A stretch of 64,000 bases of DNA from a bacterium (GTDB lineage Bacteria > UBA8248), in contig OZ241326.1 in the NCBI GenBank assembly GCA_965199855.1, positions 2,367,486 to 2,431,485 of the forward strand, written 5' to 3'. How positions within the stretch are numbered: the first letter of the stretch is position 1; each line of letters opens with the position of its first letter. Below are positions 15,946-47,446 of this stretch, piece by piece. The notes below the pieces were generated by a model. The model did no database searches. It saw only the letters and a list, made by a program, of their open reading frames with translations, and was not told where the DNA came from. The translations under genes and the position numbers were made by a program.

Positions 15946-16129
15946 GGCGCGCTGCAAGACGGCGCGCCCGGGATAGACGGAGAGCGAAGCCCATGCGCGC
16001 GTCGCCGGCGCCTGCCCGCCCTTCACCGCGCTTTTCAGGCGACAAGGCGACGCAGGGCGCGGCCAAGGCGAGCGATCTCCGCTTCGTGCTATGTTCGGGG
16101 AAATCCATCGAACGGAGGAGGATGCTTCC

Positions 16130-21432: not shown

Positions 21433-21507
21433 TCCGGCGTAGCTCAACGGCAGAGCAATCGGCTGTTAACCGATGGGTTGTAGGTTCGAATCCTACCGCC
21501 GGAGCCA
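21433..21507 (+). tRNA. tRNA-Asn (anticodon GTT)
   Basis: Acceptor tccggcg/cgccgga, anticodon stem atcgg/ccgat with loop ctGTTaa, T-arm gtagg-ttcgaat-cctac, discriminator G, encoded CCA. Confidence 0.85.
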
Positions 21508-21577
21508 TGGGGGAGGGGGGCAACGGGCCGCCCATTGCAAGTTCTTGACTCCAAGACCGGCGAAAGGAGGCTTGACC

Positions 21578-23455
21578 GTGCTCTTTGCGGAAGCCAAAGA
21601 TAGGATCCGGAGCTGGATTCGCCGCCTTATCAAGTGGCTGACCAAGCCCGAATATCCCACAGAGGCACCCGAACCAATTCCATCGAACGAGGCAAGGCCG
21701 GAGACAACCCACATACTGGCGTCTCCCCCAACTACGGCATCGCCAAAGTCAGAACCGGCCTCTCCTTCCGACCCAGGCGAAGGCACCGACGCGGAACCCA
21801 AGACAACGGACGATTCAGCAAGCAAAGAAGAGCCCAAGAAAGAACCGCGCAAGATAGGACCGAGACGTATCAAGCCGGACAACAATCGCCAAAAACCAAA
21901 TCGCCCCGCACAACTCACCCGCCCCTTCACTCCCAGGGCGGAGTTGCTCTGCCGCCAAGCTCGGGGTTCATCCTGGGAGTTAATTCTGTCCGTTCCCGAA
22001 GAATGCGGCATTGTGAAAATACAACATGACAACAACCCCTTGTCAGTCGACGAAAACGGCGAATGTCGCCCGTCATCATTCTCCGGCACCCTGAAAGTTG
22101 AATACAGCGACGGAAAAACTGACGAGATTATCCCATTGGTCTGCGACAAGACGCCGCTGGTTTTTAAAATGCGGAACGGCTGGCAAGGGTCTGGCCGCAA
22201 AATTAGCGGAATTACTCGTGGGCACTTCATTGTTTTCACGCCTGCTGAATGGAAGCGAACGGGTCGCGTTCCGGTAGAAGCCGAGAACTGCGTGGACGCT
22301 GACTTCCGGGCGCACTACTTCCATGCGCGCAAGAACGACGCAAACGATGAAATTGGCGGATTTAAGGAATATGAAGTCCCGTTGACCCCAACCGGATTCG
22401 AGTTGGAAGGTACTAGAATTTTCGATGATTCTGAAGATGGGGAACTATTCGTTGATACAGTTCCAAGGGTGAAGCCCGCGTCCGGCATCGTCTGGGCGCG
22501 CGTGGGCGAAGAGCGGCAGAGAGGCTGGTCTGGAGAAAATTTCAGACCCGATGACAAATCTCTCAAGAAAGTTCTGAATGGCCGCCAGAGGCGATTTTAT
22601 GTCCGCGTCTATGACGACGCGCCCAAGTTGATGGACAGCGGCGAGTTCCGCTATTACGCGGATCTGCAAGATATTCAGGTGAATGGCGTATCGTATTCGC
22701 AGGACATGCTGTTGCTCCCCACGTCGGACGGGCATTCGCCAACAAGACTGCAATTCATTGCCCGGAATGGAGAGCTGATCTCCCAAGATCGGCTGGAATT
22801 GAAAGGAAACAACCCTCACGCGGCCATTACGCCAGATGGCGTTTTGACAATAGCCCCACACCCGGATGGCGATGAAATAACCTTAGTCTTAAAAGCCAAT
22901 ACAAGTAGCGTGGCCGTCAAGCTCCACTTGCCGCGCGTCTGGTGGAGGCTTGAGCGATCAGGAGAGGAGCCAAGCAGGTGGGGCGACCAACCCCTAAATA
23001 TGACGCGCGATGAGTTTCGAGATCGGGCCAATAAGAGCACCGTGATAAAATTGCGATTGCCTTCACGCATCAAATCTGCCGATGTGGGATTTGGTGATAA
23101 TCTGGACCGGAGACTTCCCATAGGGGACGGATTGCCACTTGGGAACTTTATCGATTATACGGAAATCGACAATCCATCAAGTGAAGAGGTCGAACTGCGA
23201 ATTCGATGCAATAGTGAAAGGCTAACTCTAATCCAACTTGCCGCTGACTTACCTGCCCCTACAAAGAAGCCTCTAACAAACAATATGCCAGACACTTGTC
23301 CAAGCGGCAACAAGGGATTCAGCTGCGGCGAATTGCGGAAGGCCAATCTCACAGCCGCCGATGCGAAACGCTTGCAATTACGTATCGACAGGCGACGCCG
23401 CAGCGAACACAATAGCAATATAGACAGGCTCATGGAGATTGGAAACGATGCCTGA
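21578..23455 (+). CDS. island protein A: 625-aa protein of unknown function (N-terminal amphipathic helix, Pro/Thr/Ser/Glu-rich linker, ~480-aa beta-rich C-terminal region)
   Basis: The track ORF starts inside the tRNA; the likely true start is GTG 21578, with GGAGG 8 nt upstream. The protein runs VLFAEAKDRIRSWIRRLIKWLTKPEY..., then a PTS/E-rich segment, then ...GHFIVFTPAEWKRTG... No nuclease, methylase, ATPase or other catalytic motif was recognised by eye. It overlaps gene B by 8 nt. Confidence 0.6.
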   Translation: MLFAEAKDRIRSWIRRLIKWLTKPEYPTEAPEPIPSNEARPETTHILASPPTTASPKSEPASPSDPGEGTDAEPKTTDDSASKEEPKKEPRKIGPRRIKPDNNRQKPNRPAQLTRPFTPRAELLCRQARGSSWELILSVPEECGIVKIQHDNNPLSVDENGECRPSSFSGTLKVEYSDGKTDEIIPLVCDKTPLVFKMRNGWQGSGRKISGITRGHFIVFTPAEWKRTGRVPVEAENCVDADFRAHYFHARKNDANDEIGGFKEYEVPLTPTGFELEGTRIFDDSEDGELFVDTVPRVKPASGIVWARVGEERQRGWSGENFRPDDKSLKKVLNGRQRRFYVRVYDDAPKLMDSGEFRYYADLQDIQVNGVSYSQDMLLLPTSDGHSPTRLQFIARNGELISQDRLELKGNNPHAAITPDGVLTIAPHPDGDEITLVLKANTSSVAVKLHLPRVWWRLERSGEEPSRWGDQPLNMTRDEFRDRANKSTVIKLRLPSRIKSADVGFGDNLDRRLPIGDGLPLGNFIDYTEIDNPSSEEVELRIRCNSERLTLIQLAADLPAPTKKPLTNNMPDTCPSGNKGFSCGELRKANLTAADAKRLQLRIDRRRRSEHNSNIDRLMEIGNDA

Positions 23456-26400
23456 AACTCGTGACATTGAGAGATGGGTTGATACGATTGGTGCTCGCTA
23501 CGAAAATTATTTGAAAACCTCGTTTTACTTCAAGGACTCGAAACTCCGTGAATCGTTTCAACATGCGTTACAGGGTGGCCGCCTGCTGAAAGGGCCTTTT
23601 CCCGAACCGGCGCGCGACTTCAAAAAAGGCGTAGACGCGAGGCAACTGGCGAAAGAATGTTTTCCTGACAGGGGCGGCGCTCTACTTCCGGCATTACGGA
23701 AAGGCGCTTTGTATGTCCATCAAGAGCGCGCCGTGCGTTGTACTCACACAGACCAGCGGAACATCGTGGTCGCCACCGGTACCGCCAGCGGCAAGACGGA
23801 GAGTTTTCTCTACCCGATTCTGTTCGAGTTGTACCGCCAATACTTGGCGGGAGAACTCAGCGAGCCCGGCGTGCGGGCCATGATCCTGTATCCGATGAAC
23901 GCGCTCGCCAACGATCAAAGAGAACGCCTTGGCGAAATTTGCGAGCAGCTACGCAAGGAGGGTTCAGATTTTGCCCCCATTTTCGGACAGTACATCGGAC
24001 AAACACCCGAAGATCAAAGAGACCGTCGGCGTAACGCCTCTACTCGGGAAGAGGAACGCCTGCCCGGCGAGTTGGTTTTCCGGGAAGAGATGCGGAACAA
24101 TCCGCCGCATATCCTGCTGACCAATTATTCCATGCTGGAATACCTTCTTATTCGTCCGAGCGACAGCCCGCTTTTCGACGTAGACCGAGGCAAACACTGG
24201 CAATTCATCGTGCTTGATGAAGCTCACCAGTACCGGGGCGCCAAAGGGATGGAGATGGGCATGTTAATCCGGCGTCTCAAGCAACGGTTGCGCGATGGAG
24301 GGCGCGAAGATCGTTTCCGCTGCATCGCCACCAGCGCGACCATCGCCACCGGCGAAGGCGAAGAAGACAAACAGGTCGTCGCGAAATTCGCCGAGGAACT
24401 CTTTGCCGAGCCTTTTCGGACATCCGGCATCATTTTGGGAGAACACGAACAACAGTCACTCAAAAAGGAGCCGCGTCGCTTCCATGCGTTCGCGCGCGCC
24501 TTGGAAGGGGCTTTTTTGCTCCATGATGACGGTGAGGATGCGGTCATCCTCAATCGCAAGAGAGAGGTTGGGTGCCGCGCCGAGCCCTTGGAAATCGCGT
24601 TATGCCGGGAATGCGGACAACACTATTACGTCGGCCGGGAAAATGATGGCAAGTTGAAAGAAGCGGTGCGAGATCCCAGTCATCCGAAATTTGGCGTGGA
24701 TTATTACCTGCCATTGGAAAGCGATAATGCCGCTTCTCATGTCTTATGCCGATGCTGCGGCCAACTCTCCGCCGACGGGTCTGCTTGCGATTGCGGCGAC
24801 AGCGCCTCAATTCTCGTCAAGAAGTGCGAATCTCATAAAGAACATCCGGATCACCTGAAGAAATGCGAAGCCTGCGGCTATAGCCGCGGCGGCATCGGCG
24901 ACCCTGTTCAGGAAATCGTGCACGGCTCCGACGGCCCCAACACCGTCATCGCGACCGCCCTTCACGAGTTGCTACCGGAAAGCAGGCGCAAGGTGCTGGC
25001 GTTCGCCGACAGTCGGCAGGAGGCCGCGTTCTTCGCCTGGTATGCTCAGGACTCCTATACGGAGGTACGCGACCGCAATTTGATGTTGCGCGCTTTGAAG
25101 GCTGGGGCAATCGATTCTGAAGGACTGTCCATTGACGACCTCAAAAACCGACTGTTCAAACAGTGGGAACAGTCTGGTCTGTTTGAGAGAGCGGATACCA
25201 GGGAAAGCAAGGACCGAAAGGTGCTGACGGCAATCCTCGGAGAAGCGTTGACGGACGAGAAGAGGCTGTCCTTAAGTGGAGTCGGTTTGGTCAGGTGGTT
25301 CGTCAAAATCCCGGACGACTTGAGACCGCCGGCCTCAATGCTGGAGCCGCCTTGGAATCTAACGGATGAAGAAGCGCGCCGCCTTCTCGCATATCTTTTA
25401 GACGAGTGGCGTGTGCGCTACGCCTTGGCTTTGCCGGACGGTGCAGGGACCCCGTTATGGAACGACGTATCACCCCTGCGGCGGCAACAGGCTTACGGTC
25501 TGGGCACCCCCGGCAAAAGAAAAAACATCGCAGAATGGGGCAGCTCCCAATCCGCAATCGTTGGTCACTTCCTGCGCCGGCTCCTTATGCGAAATGGACA
25601 GTCCGGCAATGACGACCATTCACAATCGATCATGCTGATGAAGGATGTATGGAGCGCATTGCGCGAGCGGGATAAAAAATATGGCCAAAAAGCCGACCAA
25701 ATTCTTTCGTCCGCTAACACAAACGGGACATTCCGCCTCAACTCGCGCTGGCTGCGGACCAAGCTCGCCGAGCCATCTGAAATTTGGGAGTGCGACACGT
25801 GCGCAAGCCTGAGCACCCACAACATTCACAACATCTGTCCTCGAAACGGATGCCCCGGAAATCTGTCGCCTGCCGGCCAATCACGGCTTGAAGAAAACCA
25901 CTATCGAATCCTTTACGAAAAACCCGGCCTGCCACCCACGCTATGCGCTGAAGAACATACGGCTCAAATCGAAAGCAGCGAGGCGCGCCAGAGACAGGAT
26001 CGCTTCAAAAGCGGACAAATACACCTCCTCAGTTCCTCAACCACGTTTGAGGTTGGCGTCGACTTGGGCGATCTCGAGGTCGTATTCCTCCGCAACGTGC
26101 CGCCGGAGCCGTTCAACTATACCCAGCGCGTCGGGAGGGCGGGACGCCGAGAAACGCCGGGATTGGCGCTGACCTACTGCCGCCGCAACCCACATGACTT
26201 GTACCACTACGAAGACCCGGAAAAGCGCGTGATAGAGGGAAAGGTGCAACCCCCAAGGCTCCGGATGACCAACGACAAAATCATCTCCCGGCACATGGCC
26301 GCCGTCGCTCTGTCCGCATTTTTCAAGAATGAGGGAAACGAGGAACGCTTCAGGAATGTCGAATCCTTCATCGGCGATTGGGAGAATCCTCGCGCCGTTT

Positions 26401-27716
26401 CGGACCTGAAGCAGTTTTGCGAAAACAACGAGGCGTTGAAGAATTCGCTACTCCGGAGCGTGCCGGAAGCCATGCGCGAAACAACCGGACTCAACAGCAA
26501 TGATTGGATTAAAATCATCGCCGGCCCGGACAGCCGCCTTGACCGAGCCGAGAAAGAAGTTTCCGACGACTATCAGCGCATGGAAGCGCTTGAAAAAGAG
26601 TACTCGGACAACAGCAAATATAGCGACGCGAAACGTATCAAGCAACGGAGGGATACCATCGCTAACGAACAAACCTTGACCTTCCTCTCACGCAAAGCCG
26701 TAATTCCCAAATATGGCTTTCCGGTTGACGTGGTGGAACTCGATACCCGGGAACTCGATACCCGGCCGCAAAACAGAAGTTCGGCAAGAGTATCGTTGCA
26801 AAGAGACCTGTCTCAAGCCATTGCCGAATATGCGCCGGGCGGTAAAGTCGTGGCGAACAAGCAAGAGTGGGAATCATGCGGTGTAAAAGTAATTTCCGGA
26901 AAGCAATTTCCGGTCAAGCGTTACGCTTACGACGATGCCCGCTATTTTCAGCAATGTGATGAAGAGGGCAATCTTCCAAACAGCAGAAGCAGAAGATACC
27001 TTTCTCCGGTCTTCGGTTTCGTGACACCGCTATTTGAGAAACCCAAGAAGCCGCGGGGACGAGCGCAACGCCTATACACAACACGACCGTTTTTTCCGGG
27101 TTTTGATGAAGAACCGGAATCCAAGGACCTGTTCGGGATTACGGTAACAAAAGCGCAACCGGGAAGCTTGGTCATCCTGTGCGAGGGGCGGAATCAGAAA
27201 GGGTTCTATATTTGCCGCACTTGCGGAAGCCACATGACGAAGCCAGCGAGCGCGCACAAGACGCCGGCAGGATCCAAATGTACCGAGAGATTAGAGAAAT
27301 TTTCGCTCGGGCACGAGTTGGTTACGGATGTAGTGCGCCTGCAATTTTCAGACTTGGGCGACCAGTGGGACGCTTACTCCCTCGCTTACGCCATACAGCT
27401 GGGCGCGTCGAAAACAATGGATGTGCCGGACACGGACTTGAACGTCACTATCACTGGCGACAAAGCATCGGACGAGACGGCGATTGTCTTATATGACAAT
27501 GTTCCCGGCGGTGCCGGTCTGGTGGCGCAGTTGGAACACGAGGGTATATTTCGAGAAATGCTCGGCAATGCCCGAGAACGGGTACAAGGCGGATGTGGCT
27601 GTGACTCAAGTTGCTACGGTTGTCTGCGCAGCTACCGCAACCAGTTCGCGCACCCGCACTTGAATCGCAAAAGAGCTCAAGCCTTTTTACCCGCCGTAGG
27701 CGTCGGGGCGGAATAG
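23448..27716 (+). CDS. island protein B: large DExH-box SF2 helicase with a Zn-ribbon insertion and C-terminal DUF1998/MZB Cys4 domain (DruE/MrfA/DrmA-like)
   Basis: The track start at 23439 is TTG; ATG 23448 gives MPETRDIERW... Motif I VVATGTASGKTESF, Ia ILYPMNALANDQ, II VLDEAHQY, III ATSATI, VI QRVGRAGRRETPG. An insertion between the RecA-like halves carries four CxxC pairs (LCRECGQHYY..., CRCCGQ, CDCGD, CEACGY). The C-terminus CRTCGSH...C..GGCGCDSSCYGCLRSYRNQFAHPHL matches the DUF1998 signature. Confidence 0.85.
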   Translation: MPETRDIERWVDTIGARYENYLKTSFYFKDSKLRESFQHALQGGRLLKGPFPEPARDFKKGVDARQLAKECFPDRGGALLPALRKGALYVHQERAVRCTHTDQRNIVVATGTASGKTESFLYPILFELYRQYLAGELSEPGVRAMILYPMNALANDQRERLGEICEQLRKEGSDFAPIFGQYIGQTPEDQRDRRRNASTREEERLPGELVFREEMRNNPPHILLTNYSMLEYLLIRPSDSPLFDVDRGKHWQFIVLDEAHQYRGAKGMEMGMLIRRLKQRLRDGGREDRFRCIATSATIATGEGEEDKQVVAKFAEELFAEPFRTSGIILGEHEQQSLKKEPRRFHAFARALEGAFLLHDDGEDAVILNRKREVGCRAEPLEIALCRECGQHYYVGRENDGKLKEAVRDPSHPKFGVDYYLPLESDNAASHVLCRCCGQLSADGSACDCGDSASILVKKCESHKEHPDHLKKCEACGYSRGGIGDPVQEIVHGSDGPNTVIATALHELLPESRRKVLAFADSRQEAAFFAWYAQDSYTEVRDRNLMLRALKAGAIDSEGLSIDDLKNRLFKQWEQSGLFERADTRESKDRKVLTAILGEALTDEKRLSLSGVGLVRWFVKIPDDLRPPASMLEPPWNLTDEEARRLLAYLLDEWRVRYALALPDGAGTPLWNDVSPLRRQQAYGLGTPGKRKNIAEWGSSQSAIVGHFLRRLLMRNGQSGNDDHSQSIMLMKDVWSALRERDKKYGQKADQILSSANTNGTFRLNSRWLRTKLAEPSEIWECDTCASLSTHNIHNICPRNGCPGNLSPAGQSRLEENHYRILYEKPGLPPTLCAEEHTAQIESSEARQRQDRFKSGQIHLLSSSTTFEVGVDLGDLEVVFLRNVPPEPFNYTQRVGRAGRRETPGLALTYCRRNPHDLYHYEDPEKRVIEGKVQPPRLRMTNDKIISRHMAAVALSAFFKNEGNEERFRNVESFIGDWENPRAVSDLKQFCENNEALKNSLLRSVPEAMRETTGLNSNDWIKIIAGPDSRLDRAEKEVSDDYQRMEALEKEYSDNSKYSDAKRIKQRRDTIANEQTLTFLSRKAVIPKYGFPVDVVELDTRELDTRPQNRSSARVSLQRDLSQAIAEYAPGGKVVANKQEWESCGVKVISGKQFPVKRYAYDDARYFQQCDEEGNLPNSRSRRYLSPVFGFVTPLFEKPKKPRGRAQRLYTTRPFFPGFDEEPESKDLFGITVTKAQPGSLVILCEGRNQKGFYICRTCGSHMTKPASAHKTPAGSKCTERLEKFSLGHELVTDVVRLQFSDLGDQWDAYSLAYAIQLGASKTMDVPDTDLNVTITGDKASDETAIVLYDNVPGGAGLVAQLEHEGIFREMLGNARERVQGGCGCDSSCYGCLRSYRNQFAHPHLNRKRAQAFLPAVGVGAE

Positions 27717-28010
27717 CCGAAAACACTTTCATTGAGGTTCGTTGGGCGGCTTTTTCGAATTGCAACGCCCCCCTAGTCCCGGCGGTAGCCCCGGCATTTG
27801 GCGAGGATGGCGCCGTCGCGCGAGAACCACTCGGCGGTGAAGCCCGTCCCCTTGGGCAGAAACTTCACCAGGAGCAGGCCCTCGCTCCTGCCGCGCCGCC
27901 AGCGATACCACGAGCCCCTGGAGTCCCGCCCGTCCAGTTTGAGTCCCGTCCTCTTGAGGCGGCTGCCCTGGATGAAGCCCTCCTTCTCCCGGAAGCCGGC
28001 GGCGATGCCC

Positions 28011-29030
28011 TCATCCCTCCCTTCGCCCTCGCAGATGCCGCGAAATCCGCGCCAGCCCGAGGCGAAGCGGAGACGGGGCGCGGCGGAGAGCAGGCGCTTG
28101 TTGCGCCGCTTGATCTTCTTCCTCTCCGTTCTGATCGCATCCTTTATCTCCCATTTGTCGAACCAGCCGAAGGCGAGGGTGTTGATCGCGGCGGAGAGCG
28201 CGTCCTCCTCCTTCTTCTCGCCGGGCGCGGGGGTTGAGCTGTCCCGGAACGTAGTAGCGCCGCGCCTTGTCGGCGATATTCCGCGCGCGGCGGACGCGCC
28301 CGGGCCCCGCCGGGTGCGTCCTGAAATAGGCGCGGCCCCTGCCCGGCCCGCGCGCCCAGAGGCGCGAGGCGGCGTAGGGGTCGTAGCCGGCGAGCGCCGC
28401 GTAGAGAATGCCCATCTTGTCCGCCTCCTCCTCTTCCTTGAAGGAGTAGGTCGCGCCCCTGCCCTTCCGACCCGTCCTTCCGCCGGCGAGGTTGATGAAC
28501 GTTTGCGAGGATACGCGATCGGAGACGTGGGAGGCCGCGTTGTGGGCCATCTCGTGGCCGATCACCGCGGCGAGCTCCTCGTCGTCCAGGTCGTCGGTCA
28601 GGCCCGTGAAGAACACCATCTTGTTGCCGCCGAGAGCGGCCGCGTTCCAAAGCGGGTCGTCAAAATAGACGAACCTGACGGAGCGCTCGATCTCGTCCGC
28701 CGCGTGGCTCGCGGAGACCACGCGATGGAAGACGCGCGCGAGGCGCTCGTAGCGAGGGTCGAAGGGCGACACCCGCCTCGCTCCGGGCCGCGCCCCGATT
28801 TTTTCGGGATTGCGGATAATCTCCCTCATCCGCCTCTCGGAGGCGCGGACTTCCGCGGCCCGGGGGATGAAGTTGGGCGAGCGCTCCCCCGCGCTCGCGC
28901 CGCGCCTGCCCGGGGCACCGGGTTCCCGATACCGCTCGAGGATCGCGTCCGCCTGCGAGATGAGGTCAACGAGCTCCGCGCACGCGCTCATAGAAAGCGA
29001 GAGAAGCAGGAGCGCCGCCAGATTTCTCAT
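28011..29030 (-). CDS. M48-family zinc metallopeptidase lipoprotein (C-terminal tail uncertain)
   Basis: Signal/lipobox LLLLSLSMSAC; HEMAH zinc motif (HExxH) in AVIGHEMAHNAASH; downstream THPAGPGRVRRARNI. The last ~100 aa are low-complexity Arg/Gly-rich, so the true stop may lie earlier. Confidence 0.65.
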   Translation of the reverse strand: MRNLAALLLLSLSMSACAELVDLISQADAILERYREPGAPGRRGASAGERSPNFIPRAAEVRASERRMREIIRNPEKIGARPGARRVSPFDPRYERLARVFHRVVSASHAADEIERSVRFVYFDDPLWNAAALGGNKMVFFTGLTDDLDDEELAAVIGHEMAHNAASHVSDRVSSQTFINLAGGRTGRKGRGATYSFKEEEEADKMGILYAALAGYDPYAASRLWARGPGRGRAYFRTHPAGPGRVRRARNIADKARRYYVPGQLNPRARREEGGGRALRRDQHPRLRLVRQMGDKGCDQNGEEEDQAAQQAPALRRAPSPLRLGLARISRHLRGRREG

Positions 29031-46237: not shown

Positions 46238-47446
46238 ATGAAGAAAACGCGGCTCCTGACGGGGTGGGCGTTGACGCTGATCATGGCGGGATGCGCTGCG
46301 CCCACCATGAAAGTTCCGCCCGTGACGAAGTACGAGCAGAGGGAGGAGGCCAGGAAGCAGATAGCGATGGCTTCCAGAAGAACCCCGCTGAAAATGAGGA
46401 AGAACGAGAAGAACCTCGATCCGGAGAAGTGGCTGAACGAGATCGCCTATCAGATTTATCGAGCGAACGCCGAGTTTTGCGACAAGACGAGATTCATATC
46501 GGGATTCAGCTGGGAGAGCAGGCCGTATCTCTACAAGGGGGCGTTGGGAGATCGGGCGGCCTACGTCCTTCAGGTGTACGAGGACTCTCCGGCGGAGAAG
46601 GCGGGCTTGAAGGAAGGGGATCGGATTATCAGGATAAACGGGCATTATTTGGGGACATCAGGCGCGGGCGGGAAGAATATGCTTGAAAATCATTTCAGGC
46701 AGGGGGGGATGACGAACCAGCTCGTGGTGGACAGGGGAGGGACAAGGAGGGGAGCGCCGGCGGAACTGGTGGAAATAAGCGTAGGACAGACCAGGAACTG
46801 CGACTATCCGGTTCACATAAAGCCGGACGGCAAGGTCAACGCCTACACCGACGGGAAGAAGATCGTCTTTACCACGGGGCTGTTGAAGTTCGCGGACACC
46901 TCGGAGGAGCTGGCGTTCGTGCTCTCCCACGAGTTGGCGCACATCATCGAGAAGCACGTGGACAAGTCGAAAGCCAACACGTTCATCGGCGCCGGAATTG
47001 GAGCGGCGGTAGGAGCCGCGCTGGGGGTATTGCTGGACGCCGGACGTTCCCGATCTTCCGGCGGAGAGAAGAAAAGGACGACGAATTACGCCGAGAGACT
47101 GGGGACGGTGGGGATGGCGGCCGGAGCGATAAAGGGAAGACTGGCGTACTCCCCCGAGTTTGAAGGAGAGGCCGACTACATCGGGGTGTATTTGATGGGA
47201 AGGGCGGGATACGAGCTCGACAACGTAGCGGGGTTCTGGAGAAGGATGGGAGCGAAGCATCCACAGGCGATTATGCACAGCGTTACGCATCAGCCGACGG
47301 CGAAAAGGTTCGTGGCGGTGGAAAAAGCGGTAAGAGAGTTCAAGTGGAAGCAGAGCCGGGGGGAGAGGTTGATTCCGGAGAAGAAGGCGTTCTCGACGGG
47401 GAGCTACGCTGAATCCGAACATGGGAACGAGGGAGAAGGCAACTAG
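46238..47446 (+). CDS. M48-family metallopeptidase lipoprotein with internal PDZ-like domain (lower-GC gene)
   Basis: Lipobox LIMAGC; HELAH zinc motif (FVLSHELAHIIEKH); PDZ-like AEKAGLKEGDRIIRINGH; local GC about 56-58%. Confidence 0.7.
   Translation: MKKTRLLTGWALTLIMAGCAAPTMKVPPVTKYEQREEARKQIAMASRRTPLKMRKNEKNLDPEKWLNEIAYQIYRANAEFCDKTRFISGFSWESRPYLYKGALGDRAAYVLQVYEDSPAEKAGLKEGDRIIRINGHYLGTSGAGGKNMLENHFRQGGMTNQLVVDRGGTRRGAPAELVEISVGQTRNCDYPVHIKPDGKVNAYTDGKKIVFTTGLLKFADTSEELAFVLSHELAHIIEKHVDKSKANTFIGAGIGAAVGAALGVLLDAGRSRSSGGEKKRTTNYAERLGTVGMAAGAIKGRLAYSPEFEGEADYIGVYLMGRAGYELDNVAGFWRRMGAKHPQAIMHSVTHQPTAKRFVAVEKAVREFKWKQSRGERLIPEKKAFSTGSYAESEHGNEGEGN

Follow-up and report, generated by a model that had tools for sequence, protein, structure and literature searches.

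A tRNA-Asn-adjacent, horizontally acquired gene pair with a DruE-family helicase: a candidate Druantia-like antiphage cassette of undescribed subtype

We analysed a bacterial DNA stretch of 64,000 nucleotides (the window). It presents a low-GC segment that follows a tRNA-Asn gene and carries exactly two genes, named here A and B. They are co-directional, overlap by 8 nt, and encode proteins of 625 and 1,422 aa. The borders and genes of the segment are as follows.

21433..21507, plus strand: tRNA-Asn, anticodon GTT (ARAGORN; Rfam RF00005, 71.3 bits), the left border of the island.
21508..27760, no strand: low-GC foreign segment of 6.25 kb, with 54.8% GC against 67.8% in the rest of the window.
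21564..21570, plus strand: Shine-Dalgarno-like AAGGAGG read from the sequence, 7 nt ahead of the GTG of gene A.
21578..23455, plus strand: gene A, GTG start, a 625-aa partner protein from a large unannotated family.
23448..27716, plus strand: gene B, a 1,422-aa DruE-family (YprA-like) SF2 helicase without a nuclease domain.
27768..27788, no strand: imperfect inverted copy of the tRNA 3' end, pairing with 21493-21513 (81% over 21 nt, with a 10-nt exact core).

The right limit of the low-GC segment was placed approximately at the 3' end of a convergent M48 peptidase frame, as in a 99%-identical relative (loci L075/L076). This relative represents the same population with the same insertion. Between the tRNA-Asn and the M48 peptidase gene, no further real gene was found besides A and B.

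The composition of the segment is foreign to its surroundings. Its GC is 0.548, and that of the remainder of the window is 0.678. More precisely, 1-kb windows outside the island have a mean GC of 0.678 (sd 0.033, minimum 0.589), and those within it range from 0.512 to 0.571. Likewise, GC3 is 0.57 in gene A and 0.63 in gene B, against 0.80-0.91 in the flanking genes. A preliminary description of this DNA reported a low-GC segment beside tRNA-Asn(GTT) that held exactly these two overlapping genes and no integrase, methylase or nuclease gene. All of this is borne out, and the domain and profile searches detected no integrase, methylase or nuclease domain in A or B. The same description set the GC shift 1 nt past the tRNA. 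The segment does adjoin the tRNA, but GC declines gradually across the first ~300 nt and shows no step at +1.

As a tRNA-associated island, the segment abuts the tRNA 3' end and has an atypical composition; it lacks an integrase and a direct repeat. Direct repeats (att sites) of the tRNA 3' end were not found at the island borders. The inverted copy listed above lies within the M48 reading frame of L075/L076. Its significance is doubtful, and it is probably a chance match. The absence of an integrase and of att repeats to account for the insertion counts against our main reading. A metagenome scan for the empty insertion site, run with the NupC-like neighbour, yielded no relative above 64% identity; none of the relatives was syntenic or had tRNA-Asn. 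A second locus adjacent to tRNA-Asn(GTT), L026, is not syntenic with this one. The Rfam scan of the island found no RNA element apart from the tRNA. No convincing sigma-70 promoter was found between the tRNA-Asn and gene A, and terminator-like sites occur at background frequency.

Gene B shows the architecture of a DExH helicase that ends in a zinc-binding module. Its parts are listed below.

23718..24347, plus strand: B residues 91-300, RecA1 (Pfam DEAD 1e-17), with motif I GTASGKT at aa 111-117, motif II DEAH at aa 257-260 and SAT at aa 296-298.
24603..24875, plus strand: B residues 386-476, cysteine-rich insert with CREC, CRCC, CDC and CEAC (domain scheme in PMC12458937).
25950..26150, plus strand: B residues 835-901, RecA2 core (Pfam Helicase_C 1e-10), with motif VI QRVGRAGR at aa 893-900.
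27381..27626, plus strand: B residues 1312-1393, MZB/DUF1998 zinc-binding domain (Pfam PF09369 4e-13).

The Pfam models DEAD, Helicase_C and MZB all match, as expected from the earlier proposal of a DExH helicase with DUF1998/MZB. The MZB cysteines are intact (CGC at aa 1383-1385 and CYGC at aa 1389-1392), with CRTC at aa 1256-1259 upstream. CxxC/CxC clusters at aa 386-476 and 782-785 fit the published domain scheme (PMC12458937), a fit read from the sequence only. The cysteine-rich insert probably corresponds to the zinc-binding module that defensive YprA-like helicases typically carry. Only 29 aa follow the MZB domain, so the protein has no PLD or Vsr domain. The inactivated Vsr-like C-terminal domain of type I/II DruE (PMC12458937) is thus absent in B.

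In the PADLOC search, B matches DruE3 (3.8e-154) and DruE1 (4e-154), followed by DpdJ (4e-26) and DrmA (2e-18). Among PDB entries, it matches E. coli DruE 9tu7 at 9e-76 and YprA/MrfA 6znp at 1e-20. These matches place B in the DruE family and outside the MrfA repair clade. A MrfA/YprA-type housekeeping or DNA-repair helicase, with A as an unrelated neighbour, would agree with the 6znp match, with the YprA-family architecture (DExH core plus MZB) and with the housekeeping genes around the cassette. MrfAB/YprAB shares with B an SF2 DExH core followed by an OB-CON-MZB canopy, and these helicases have a common ancestor family. Nevertheless, the DruE models match about 130 orders of magnitude better than the MrfA-type ones. 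MrfA has about 750 aa, lacks the zinc-module inserts and is paired with the 3'-5' exonuclease MrfB. In contrast, B is twice as long, with cysteine-rich inserts and an Ig-array partner, and is horizontally mobile; A and the neighbouring genes contain no exonuclease domain, MrfB-like or other. The 8-nt overlap, the joint travel of A and B through unrelated genomes and the foreign composition also speak against a repair gene with a chance neighbour. We regard this explanation as highly improbable, in agreement with the earlier view that the helicase is not of the repair type.

Within the DruE family, B seems to stand apart. On the DruE3 model it scores 514 bits in 3 stretches, whereas E. coli DruE matches this model in a single stretch with 2,180 bits. 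Its scores on DruE3 and DruE1 are equal, and they stay at the cross-type level against every typed Druantia clade. YjiV_N, a domain of type III DruE, was found in 0 of the 120 closest B homologues. By its sequence, B would fall outside all typed DruE clades; for type III, III-B included, the comparison covered YjiV_N and the DruE3 model.

The partner protein A has the following regions.

21581..21640, plus strand: A residues 2-21, N-terminal amphipathic helix (AlphaFold model).
21647..21937, plus strand: A residues 24-120, disordered linker rich in Pro, Glu, Lys and Arg (pLDDT below 50, column entropy, composition).
21938..23242, plus strand: A residues 121-555, array of about five beta-sandwich (Ig/Fn3-like) domains.
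22175..22702, plus strand: A residues 200-375, most conserved core of the A family.
23306..23452, plus strand: A residues 577-625, small helical domain resembling the conserved core of ribosomal protein eL13.

The AlphaFold model (pLDDT 86) presents about five Ig-like domains and the eL13-like C-terminal tail. The linker is hypervariable across the family. The core carries the motifs GHF.V..P..W.R.G, C.D..F.AH.F, FDDS..G.LFV, WARVGEE...GW.G.NF, RF..RVY and DS..FRY, and residues R343 and R358 are invariant. The family is large, with about 1,000 clusters at 50% identity (E <= 1e-30), which is an upper estimate. No model for it exists in the PADLOC, Pfam and NCBIfam libraries searched, so by these models its loci register at most as orphan DruE. 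No A homologues were found on IMG/VR viral contigs.

The tail of A has only the core motif of eL13 (Pfam PF01294; archaeal PRK12277), fused to a bacterial multi-domain protein. Both matches are under the whole-protein cut-offs (17.9 bits vs 24.9 for PF01294; 39.5 vs 96 for PRK12277). The likeness is therefore at the domain level, and the tail is best described as an exapted domain, not a ribosomal protein. To our knowledge, eL13 is normally absent from bacteria and otherwise confined to archaea and eukaryotes. A literature search found no paper that links L13e with DUF1998 helicases. The eL13 core is the C-terminal module in 38 of 65 A-family members. Other relatives of A have replaced it with a complete bacterial uS5 (TIGR01021, 208 bits, cut-off 164) or with a NusA-type KH domain, and these variants retain the same helicase neighbour. 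Among the structured parts of A, the tail shows the lowest conservation, and it is swapped between relatives.

We compared A with DruH, the partner of DruE in Druantia type III. None of the 65 family members matched the PADLOC DruH models, ten of which match a genuine E. coli DruH. NCBIfam YjiT_fam (NF038336) does not match A and matches E. coli DruH at 2e-286. In precomputed Pfam annotation, none of 118 A-family proteins has YjiT_N or YjiT_2nd (PF27201/PF27205). Of 45 DruH homologues, nearly all have them, the exceptions being two truncated sequences that lack one or both. An hhalign comparison of the A-family and DruH profiles gave a probability of 0.8%. A is also shorter (625 aa against about 1,100-1,190 aa) and lacks the N- and C-terminal helical domains. 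The exonuclease and ssDNA-binding activities of DruH have been mapped to the N-terminal helical domain. The DruH structure (PDB 9TUD) may be newer than the fold libraries, and the missing fold match to A carries no weight. By any sequence test tried, A is not a DruH homologue. It has no match to a housekeeping family either, and the earlier idea that the partner is not a known one is upheld.

These results bear on whether the cassette is an ordinary Druantia III-B, with B as a compact DruE without PLD and A as a strongly diverged, shortened DruH. Type III has two subtypes: III-A is that of E. coli and P. aeruginosa, whereas III-B has a compact DruE. Type III and the cassette both consist of two genes, of which the partner gene lies upstream and overlaps the helicase gene in the same direction. 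The signature helicase is of the DruE/YprA family, with a C-terminal MZB and, in B probably, zinc-binding inserts. In both, the partner is rich in Ig-like domains, carries no annotated catalytic domain and diverges more quickly than the helicase; DruH has several Ig/Fn3-like domains and diverges faster than DruE (PMC13192584). Like B, the III-B helicase lacks PLD nuclease domains, and a compact nuclease-less DruE is what the III-B description contains (PMC12458937; 10.64898/2026.05.13.724758). However, A belongs to another family. It has half the size of DruH, no DruH mark in PADLOC, NCBIfam, Pfam or hhalign, and an eL13-like tail. B lacks YjiV_N and is 250-700 aa shorter than type III DruE, and the alignment of the two is confined to RecA1 and the stretch from RecA2 to MZB (24-42% identity). 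True type III loci, the compact one included, pair a YjiT-type DruH with a DruE that bears YjiV_N. This domain is present in the DruE beside a true DruH in all three loci, including the compact 1,708-aa DruE of Desulfatirhabdium. An ordinary III-B is thus unlikely. The position of B outside the typed DruE clades and its lack of YjiV_N make "Druantia-like, with a new partner" a better fit than "Druantia III".

A and B form a unit that is conserved together. In about 65 of 71 genome loci, the gene directly after a homologue of A (31-51% identity) is a homologue of B (58-72% identity). Among these, 59 are complete, and the others are cut by contig ends or decayed. The helicases beside A-family proteins all have about 1,400-1,440 aa and, for the best 120, are at least 66% identical. 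The sequences indicate that A evolves faster than B. The hosts belong to more than 12 phyla and are largely sponge symbionts. All-against-all comparison of the flanking ORFs revealed no conserved third gene, with no other family common to more than 4 of 59 loci. The flanks of the pair are unrelated between loci. The module has a GC of 0.57 +/- 0.06 across loci with flank GC from 0.40 to 0.72, and it departs from its host in both directions. The unrelated flanks in many phyla and this two-way departure point to horizontal acquisition, as had been proposed. In the few annotated contexts, variants of the pair have toxin-antitoxin pairs, a transposase or a Schlafen/AlbA_2 ATPase as neighbours, and a full Menshen system (NsnABC) lies immediately beside one A homologue. 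In the window, no other defence genes lie near the cassette and the neighbours are housekeeping genes, which counts against the defence reading. The proposed defence island is in this sense a horizontally acquired cassette, but a single one and not a group of several systems.

The closest cultured relative found for B is the helicase of an unclassified locus (L073) on Clostridium butyricum pNPD4_2, where a compact DruE-like helicase accompanies a 1,069-aa partner. Both helicases align end to end with 25-39% identity, far under the 58-72% of the B clade. The two loci share the two overlapping genes, the absence of a nuclease domain after MZB, and a partner that DruH models do not recognise. On the other hand, the C. 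butyricum partner is unlike the A family (hhalign 0.2%) and has no ribosomal-protein-like tail. Druantia I, II and IV (DruA-D, DruM/F/G and DruF/L with DruE) have a DruE-family helicase in common with B. Their accessory proteins do not occur here: A has no PADLOC match, and no third gene is conserved. DISARM, with a split DrmA + DrmB, the PLD nuclease DrmC and a methyltransferase, differs as well. In B, the helicase and MZB are in one protein, DrmA matches at 2e-18 only, and no PLD or methylase is present. The comparison supports the divergent or undescribed Druantia-like variant suggested in the preliminary description: B stands outside the typed DruE clades without YjiV_N, and there is no type I, II or IV accessory gene.

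Taken together, the segment is probably a horizontally acquired two-gene cassette that encodes a Druantia-like antiphage system of an undescribed subtype. We infer the defence function; its support is indirect and lies in the mobility of the pair and in neighbours such as toxin-antitoxin pairs, Menshen or Schlafen-like genes. By homology with the solved DruE, B would load on ssDNA, 3' tails or forks of replicating phage DNA. It would then translocate 3'-to-5' and unwind the duplex. A would be translationally coupled to B. Its Ig-like domains may form a scaffold in the cytoplasm, preceded by a variable N-terminal part and followed by a module that binds nucleic acid. Most likely, A senses the infection or serves as an adaptor, and thereby licenses the helicase or directs it to its target, as has been proposed for DruH. 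No nuclease or other effector domain is recognisable in A or B, which counts against the defence reading. Since no nuclease is recognisable, clearance of the phage would have to depend on the helicase disrupting replication intermediates, or on nucleases of the host that are recruited.

The ribosomal-protein-like tails could also mean that the role of the pair relates to RNA or the ribosome and not to immunity directed at DNA. The pair would then be an RNA- or ribosome-linked helicase system that, for instance, detects a takeover of translation or works on R-loops or transcripts, with the partner tethered to RNA or ribosomes by its ribosomal-protein-derived tail. Phage defence directed at DNA would not be its main function. 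The C-terminal module of the A family is always RNA-binding and translation-related in origin, and the lack of a nuclease agrees with this. Nevertheless, every characterised relative of B (DruE, MrfA, SftH, DrmAB) acts on DNA, and KH and dsRBD-like folds bind ssDNA too. The poor conservation and exchange of the tail are those expected of an accessory targeting module, and the genomic contexts are those of defence genes. We consider this alternative quite improbable. A bolder version of the antiphage reading, to which we give limited credence, is a new type of DruE-centred, nuclease-free immunity. Through an exapted eL13 core, a whole uS5 or a KH domain, an Ig-array sensor or adaptor would link the helicase with RNA, R-loops or the ribosome. 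Such a system would have spread horizontally, largely in marine-sponge microbiomes.

Druantia is widespread. Its mechanism is contested in 2026 preprints: DruH is taken variously to be a sensor, to bind ssDNA or to act as an exonuclease, and views differ on whether DruE needs its PLD nuclease domains. The cassette would be a natural minimal version that lacks both candidate nucleases, since the helicase has no PLD domains and the partner has no N-terminal domain of the DruH type. With this cassette one can ask directly whether DruE defence works without a dedicated nuclease and what the partner necessarily contributes. The A family also marks a gap in current annotation, and ribosomal-protein domains in a defence-type operon are an unusual recruitment. 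Finally, the concentration of the pair in sponge symbionts of many phyla would be an example of the habitat-wide sharing of a defence gene pair.

The low-GC island begins immediately 3' of a tRNA-Asn gene and contains two co-directional genes, A and B, which overlap by 8 nt:

21433-21507, + strand: tRNA-Asn(GTT), detected by ARAGORN and Rfam
21578-23455, + strand: gene A, 625 aa, GTG start at 21578 with AAGGAGG 7 nt before it
23448-27716, + strand: gene B, 1,422 aa

The island (21508 to about 27760) has a GC content of 0.548, compared with 0.678 in the remainder of the 64-kb window. In 1-kb windows, the values within the island range from 0.512 to 0.571, and outside it they have a mean of 0.678 (sd 0.033) and a minimum of 0.589. 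Likewise, GC at the third codon position is 0.57 for A and 0.63 for B, versus 0.80-0.91 in the flanking genes. On the right, the island is bounded by a convergent M48 peptidase gene, at its 3' end. Domain and profile searches found no integrase, methylase or nuclease domain in A, B or the remainder of the segment. Therefore, the preliminary description of a low-GC segment at tRNA-Asn, with two overlapping genes and none of these enzymes, is correct in all its particulars, and the sliding-window GC confirms the island.

Two metagenome contigs of the same population (L075 and L076) carry the identical insertion, with 98.7-99% nucleotide identity. The bordering M48 peptidase gene (27745-29030, − strand) encodes 339 aa in the window versus 443 aa in both contigs. 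An indel of ~64-74 nt near 28221-28231 shifts its frame, so the C-terminus is truncated in the window or the assembly is wrong. In addition, L075 (98.7% identical to the window) has an extra 2.3-kb gene at L075:265-2610, missing from window 15961-16044, about 5.5 kb upstream of the tRNA. It encodes 695 aa without a Pfam domain and marks an insertion or deletion between strains. Another M48 peptidase gene (46238-47446, + strand), whose product has a PDZ domain, lies in a mild low-GC patch (0.59-0.62) and shows a strong purine skew on its coding strand. It has no relation to the island.

The DUF1998-bearing helicase announced in the preliminary description was recovered when PADLOC and Pfam were applied to both proteins; A gave no DruH match. 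B consists of DEAD, Helicase_C and MZB/DUF1998 domains. It retains intact motifs I (GTASGKT), II (DEAH) and VI (QRVGRAGR) as well as the cysteines of MZB, and a cysteine-rich insert separates the two RecA domains. The PADLOC DruE models match B at 4e-154, followed by DpdJ (4e-26) and DrmA (2e-18). Among solved structures, the best match is E. coli DruE (9tu7, 9e-76), and then MrfA/YprA (1e-20). Judged by these comparisons, B groups with DruE and not with repair helicases.

On the DruE3 model, E. coli DruE reaches 2,180 bits in an end-to-end match; the models of types I, II and IV give it 570, 357 and 337. The same four models give B 514, 514, 398 and 362 bits, in separate stretches. The distance of B from types I and III is therefore about as great as that between these two types. 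On such scores, B is placed outside every typed Druantia clade. Its alignments to E. coli DruE and to a compact type III DruE of 1,708 aa cover only RecA1 (36-42% identity) and the part from RecA2 to MZB (24-27%). The protein ends 29 residues past MZB, which leaves no PLD or Vsr-like nuclease domain. The Pfam domain YjiV_N, carried by the DruE beside a true DruH in three of three loci, is absent from all 120 closest B homologues.

The closest cultured relative found for B is a 1,559-aa helicase from Clostridium butyricum pNPD4_2, which aligns end to end with 25-39% identity. At this locus (L073:2759-10644), the compact DruE-like helicase, without a nuclease, overlaps a gene for a 1,069-aa partner that matches neither DruH nor the A family. 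It suggests that further unclassified partner families exist for DruE-like helicases.

A has 118 homologues, all unnamed, in a 90%-clustered protein collection. A profile search of 1.84 billion representatives gave 1,032 clusters at E <= 1e-30; looser thresholds draw in unrelated Ig-repeat proteins. The AlphaFold model from the family alignment (mean pLDDT 85.8, above 90 for residues 121-555) predicts four parts: an N-terminal amphipathic helix, a disordered Pro/Glu/Lys/Arg-rich linker of ~100 residues, about five beta-sandwich domains and a small C-terminal helical domain. Residues 200-375 are the most conserved stretch of the family, with R343 and R358 invariant, and the N-terminal 120 residues are hypervariable. 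The tail of A is eL13-like. In some relatives this position holds a complete bacterial ribosomal protein uS5 (TIGR01021, 208 bits, cut-off 164), and in others a NusA-type KH domain. At L077:8001-15175, L079:8001-14100 and L080:433-7534, such variants, with uS5 (N and C domains) or KH tails, are immediately followed by a ~1,420-aa DEAD/Helicase_C/MZB helicase. An Ig-like domain (profile positions 590-682) precedes the tail in most members and is missing from the A of the window. One representative-library match, P0291 (4,314 aa), contains 47 repeats of this domain.

We took as reference the DruH of E. coli plasmid pRHB39-C18_2 (L074:2199-5558), identical in sequence to PDB 9TUD. It matches PADLOC DruH3 with E = 0 and NCBIfam YjiT_fam at 2e-286. 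Neither A nor any of 65 relatives matches the PADLOC DruH models, and A does not match NCBIfam YjiT. In precomputed Pfam annotations, YjiT_N and YjiT_2nd occur in none of 118 A-family proteins and in nearly all of 45 DruH homologues (two truncated ones lack one or both). Finally, hhalign gave a probability of 0.8% between the 118-sequence A profile and a 31-sequence DruH profile. On these four sequence-based comparisons, the identification of A as DruH is rejected. Compared with DruH, A is half as long and has neither of the helical domains, N- and C-terminal, in which 2026 studies locate the ssDNA-binding or exonuclease site and the ATP site of DruH. The likeness between the two proteins is general: several Ig-like domains, a gene that precedes that of the helicase, and faster divergence than the helicase shows. 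A and DruH may have a common ancestry.

When one genome per species was scanned, A relatives turned up at 71 loci. A complete B homologue directly follows A in 59 of them; several others are cut by contig ends or decayed. Identity to the window proteins is 58-72% for B homologues and 31-51% for A homologues. An all-against-all comparison of flanking ORFs found no family common to more than four of the 59 loci, and those four are syntenic Latescibacterota. Therefore, the unit consists of exactly two genes.

The hosts span more than 12 phyla. They include Chloroflexota (Dehalococcoidia/SAR202), Latescibacterota, Poribacteria, Binatia, Acidobacteriota, Gemmatimonadota, Dadabacteria, Nitrospinota, Spirochaetota, Bacteroidota (Rhodothermales), Verrucomicrobiota, and Alpha- and Gammaproteobacteria. 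According to record titles, many genomes are MAGs of sponge or coral symbionts, among them Poribacteria, Poriferihabitaceae, Latescibacterota, SAR202, Dadabacteria and Binatia. SAR202 bin127 comes from the sponge Aplysina aerophoba (PMC5649159), and other hosts bear sponge-associated names (Poribacteria, Poriferihabitaceae), the second of which is used in a genome note on a sponge and its associated metagenomes (PMC12859430). Bacteria of this habitat appear to share the cassette, as far as sponge association can be read from bin names. No A homologues were found on IMG/VR viral contigs.

Where the surroundings were annotated, they contain toxin-antitoxin pairs (PhdYeFM/PIN and HigB/HTH), a transposase and two ATPases, one of DUF4143 and one of Schlafen/AlbA_2 type. 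Of these, the toxin-antitoxin, transposase and Schlafen-like genes lie close to the uS5- and KH-tailed variants. At L001:9515-15239 (MAG contig CBDBHR010000029.1), the gene for an 818-aa A-family protein with an eL13-like tail shares 8 nt with a complete Menshen system (NsnA 6e-145, NsnB 5e-104, NsnC 8e-50), which stands where the helicase would be. Either an A-family partner can also pair with effectors of other kinds, or this is a defence hotspot in which the helicase has been replaced.

A and B are horizontally mobile as a two-gene unit. Module GC across loci is 0.57 ± 0.06 versus 0.40-0.72 in the flanks, deviating in both directions. A tRNA adjoins only two other of the 59 complete modules; the remaining 57 have none nearby. 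In SAR202 bin127 (L026:9230-16133), the module is directly 3' of tRNA-Asn(GTT) with flanks unrelated to the window, and at L011 it follows tRNA-Pro. The second, non-syntenic case hints at an insertion preference for tRNA-Asn(GTT). Neither an integrase nor a direct repeat was found at the island borders. An imperfect 21-nt inverted repeat (81%, with the 10-nt exact core CTACCGCCGG) links 21493-21513, at the 3' end of the tRNA, to 27768-27788, at the right border. The latter copy falls inside the M48 reading frame of the sister contigs. Since integration should yield a direct repeat, this inverted one may be due to chance. No empty site was found among metagenome relatives of the neighbouring NupC-like gene (at most 64% identity, none syntenic).

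The locus presents an intact DruE-family helicase and belongs to a mobile two-gene unit that is associated with defence genes. The partner A, coupled to the helicase in translation and evolving faster, is an Ig array whose nucleic-acid-binding tail is exchangeable in the family. Characterised DruE proteins unwind 3'-to-5' from ssDNA, 3' tails or forks (10.64898/2026.05.13.724758, 10.64898/2026.05.12.722862, 10.64898/2026.05.13.724313, PMC13192584). By analogy, B would engage phage DNA replication or recombination intermediates. A might sense infection or target B, its Ig domains recognising protein and its tail binding nucleic acid. As no nuclease domain is recognisable in either protein, clearance would have to depend on the unwinding itself or on nucleases of the host. 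A DruE system that works without a nuclease is plausible, given that the PLD domains of E. coli DruE proved dispensable in one study. The tails (eL13, uS5, KH) are ribosomal in origin, so the system may also be connected with RNA or the ribosome.

Of the known systems, Druantia type III is closest to this locus in how it works, and B belongs to the DruE family. Two features that define type III are lacking, a YjiT-family DruH and a YjiV_N-bearing DruE matching the type III model end to end, and none of the accessory genes of types I, II and IV is present. A possible place for the B clade is the 'Druantia type III-like' branch, with helicases mostly lacking nuclease domains (Bell et al. 2025, PMC12458937). 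In the literature searched, we found no paper linking L13e with DUF1998 helicases and no A-type partner described for Druantia. The earlier interpretation holds for the Druantia-like character, the horizontal acquisition and the novel partner, but the locus falls outside type III proper. We consider it probable that this is a horizontally acquired Druantia-like module with a predicted role in defence and a novel partner. Its value lies in a natural nuclease-less DruE system, a large partner family without a model in the searched family libraries, and an unusual recruitment of ribosomal-protein domains.
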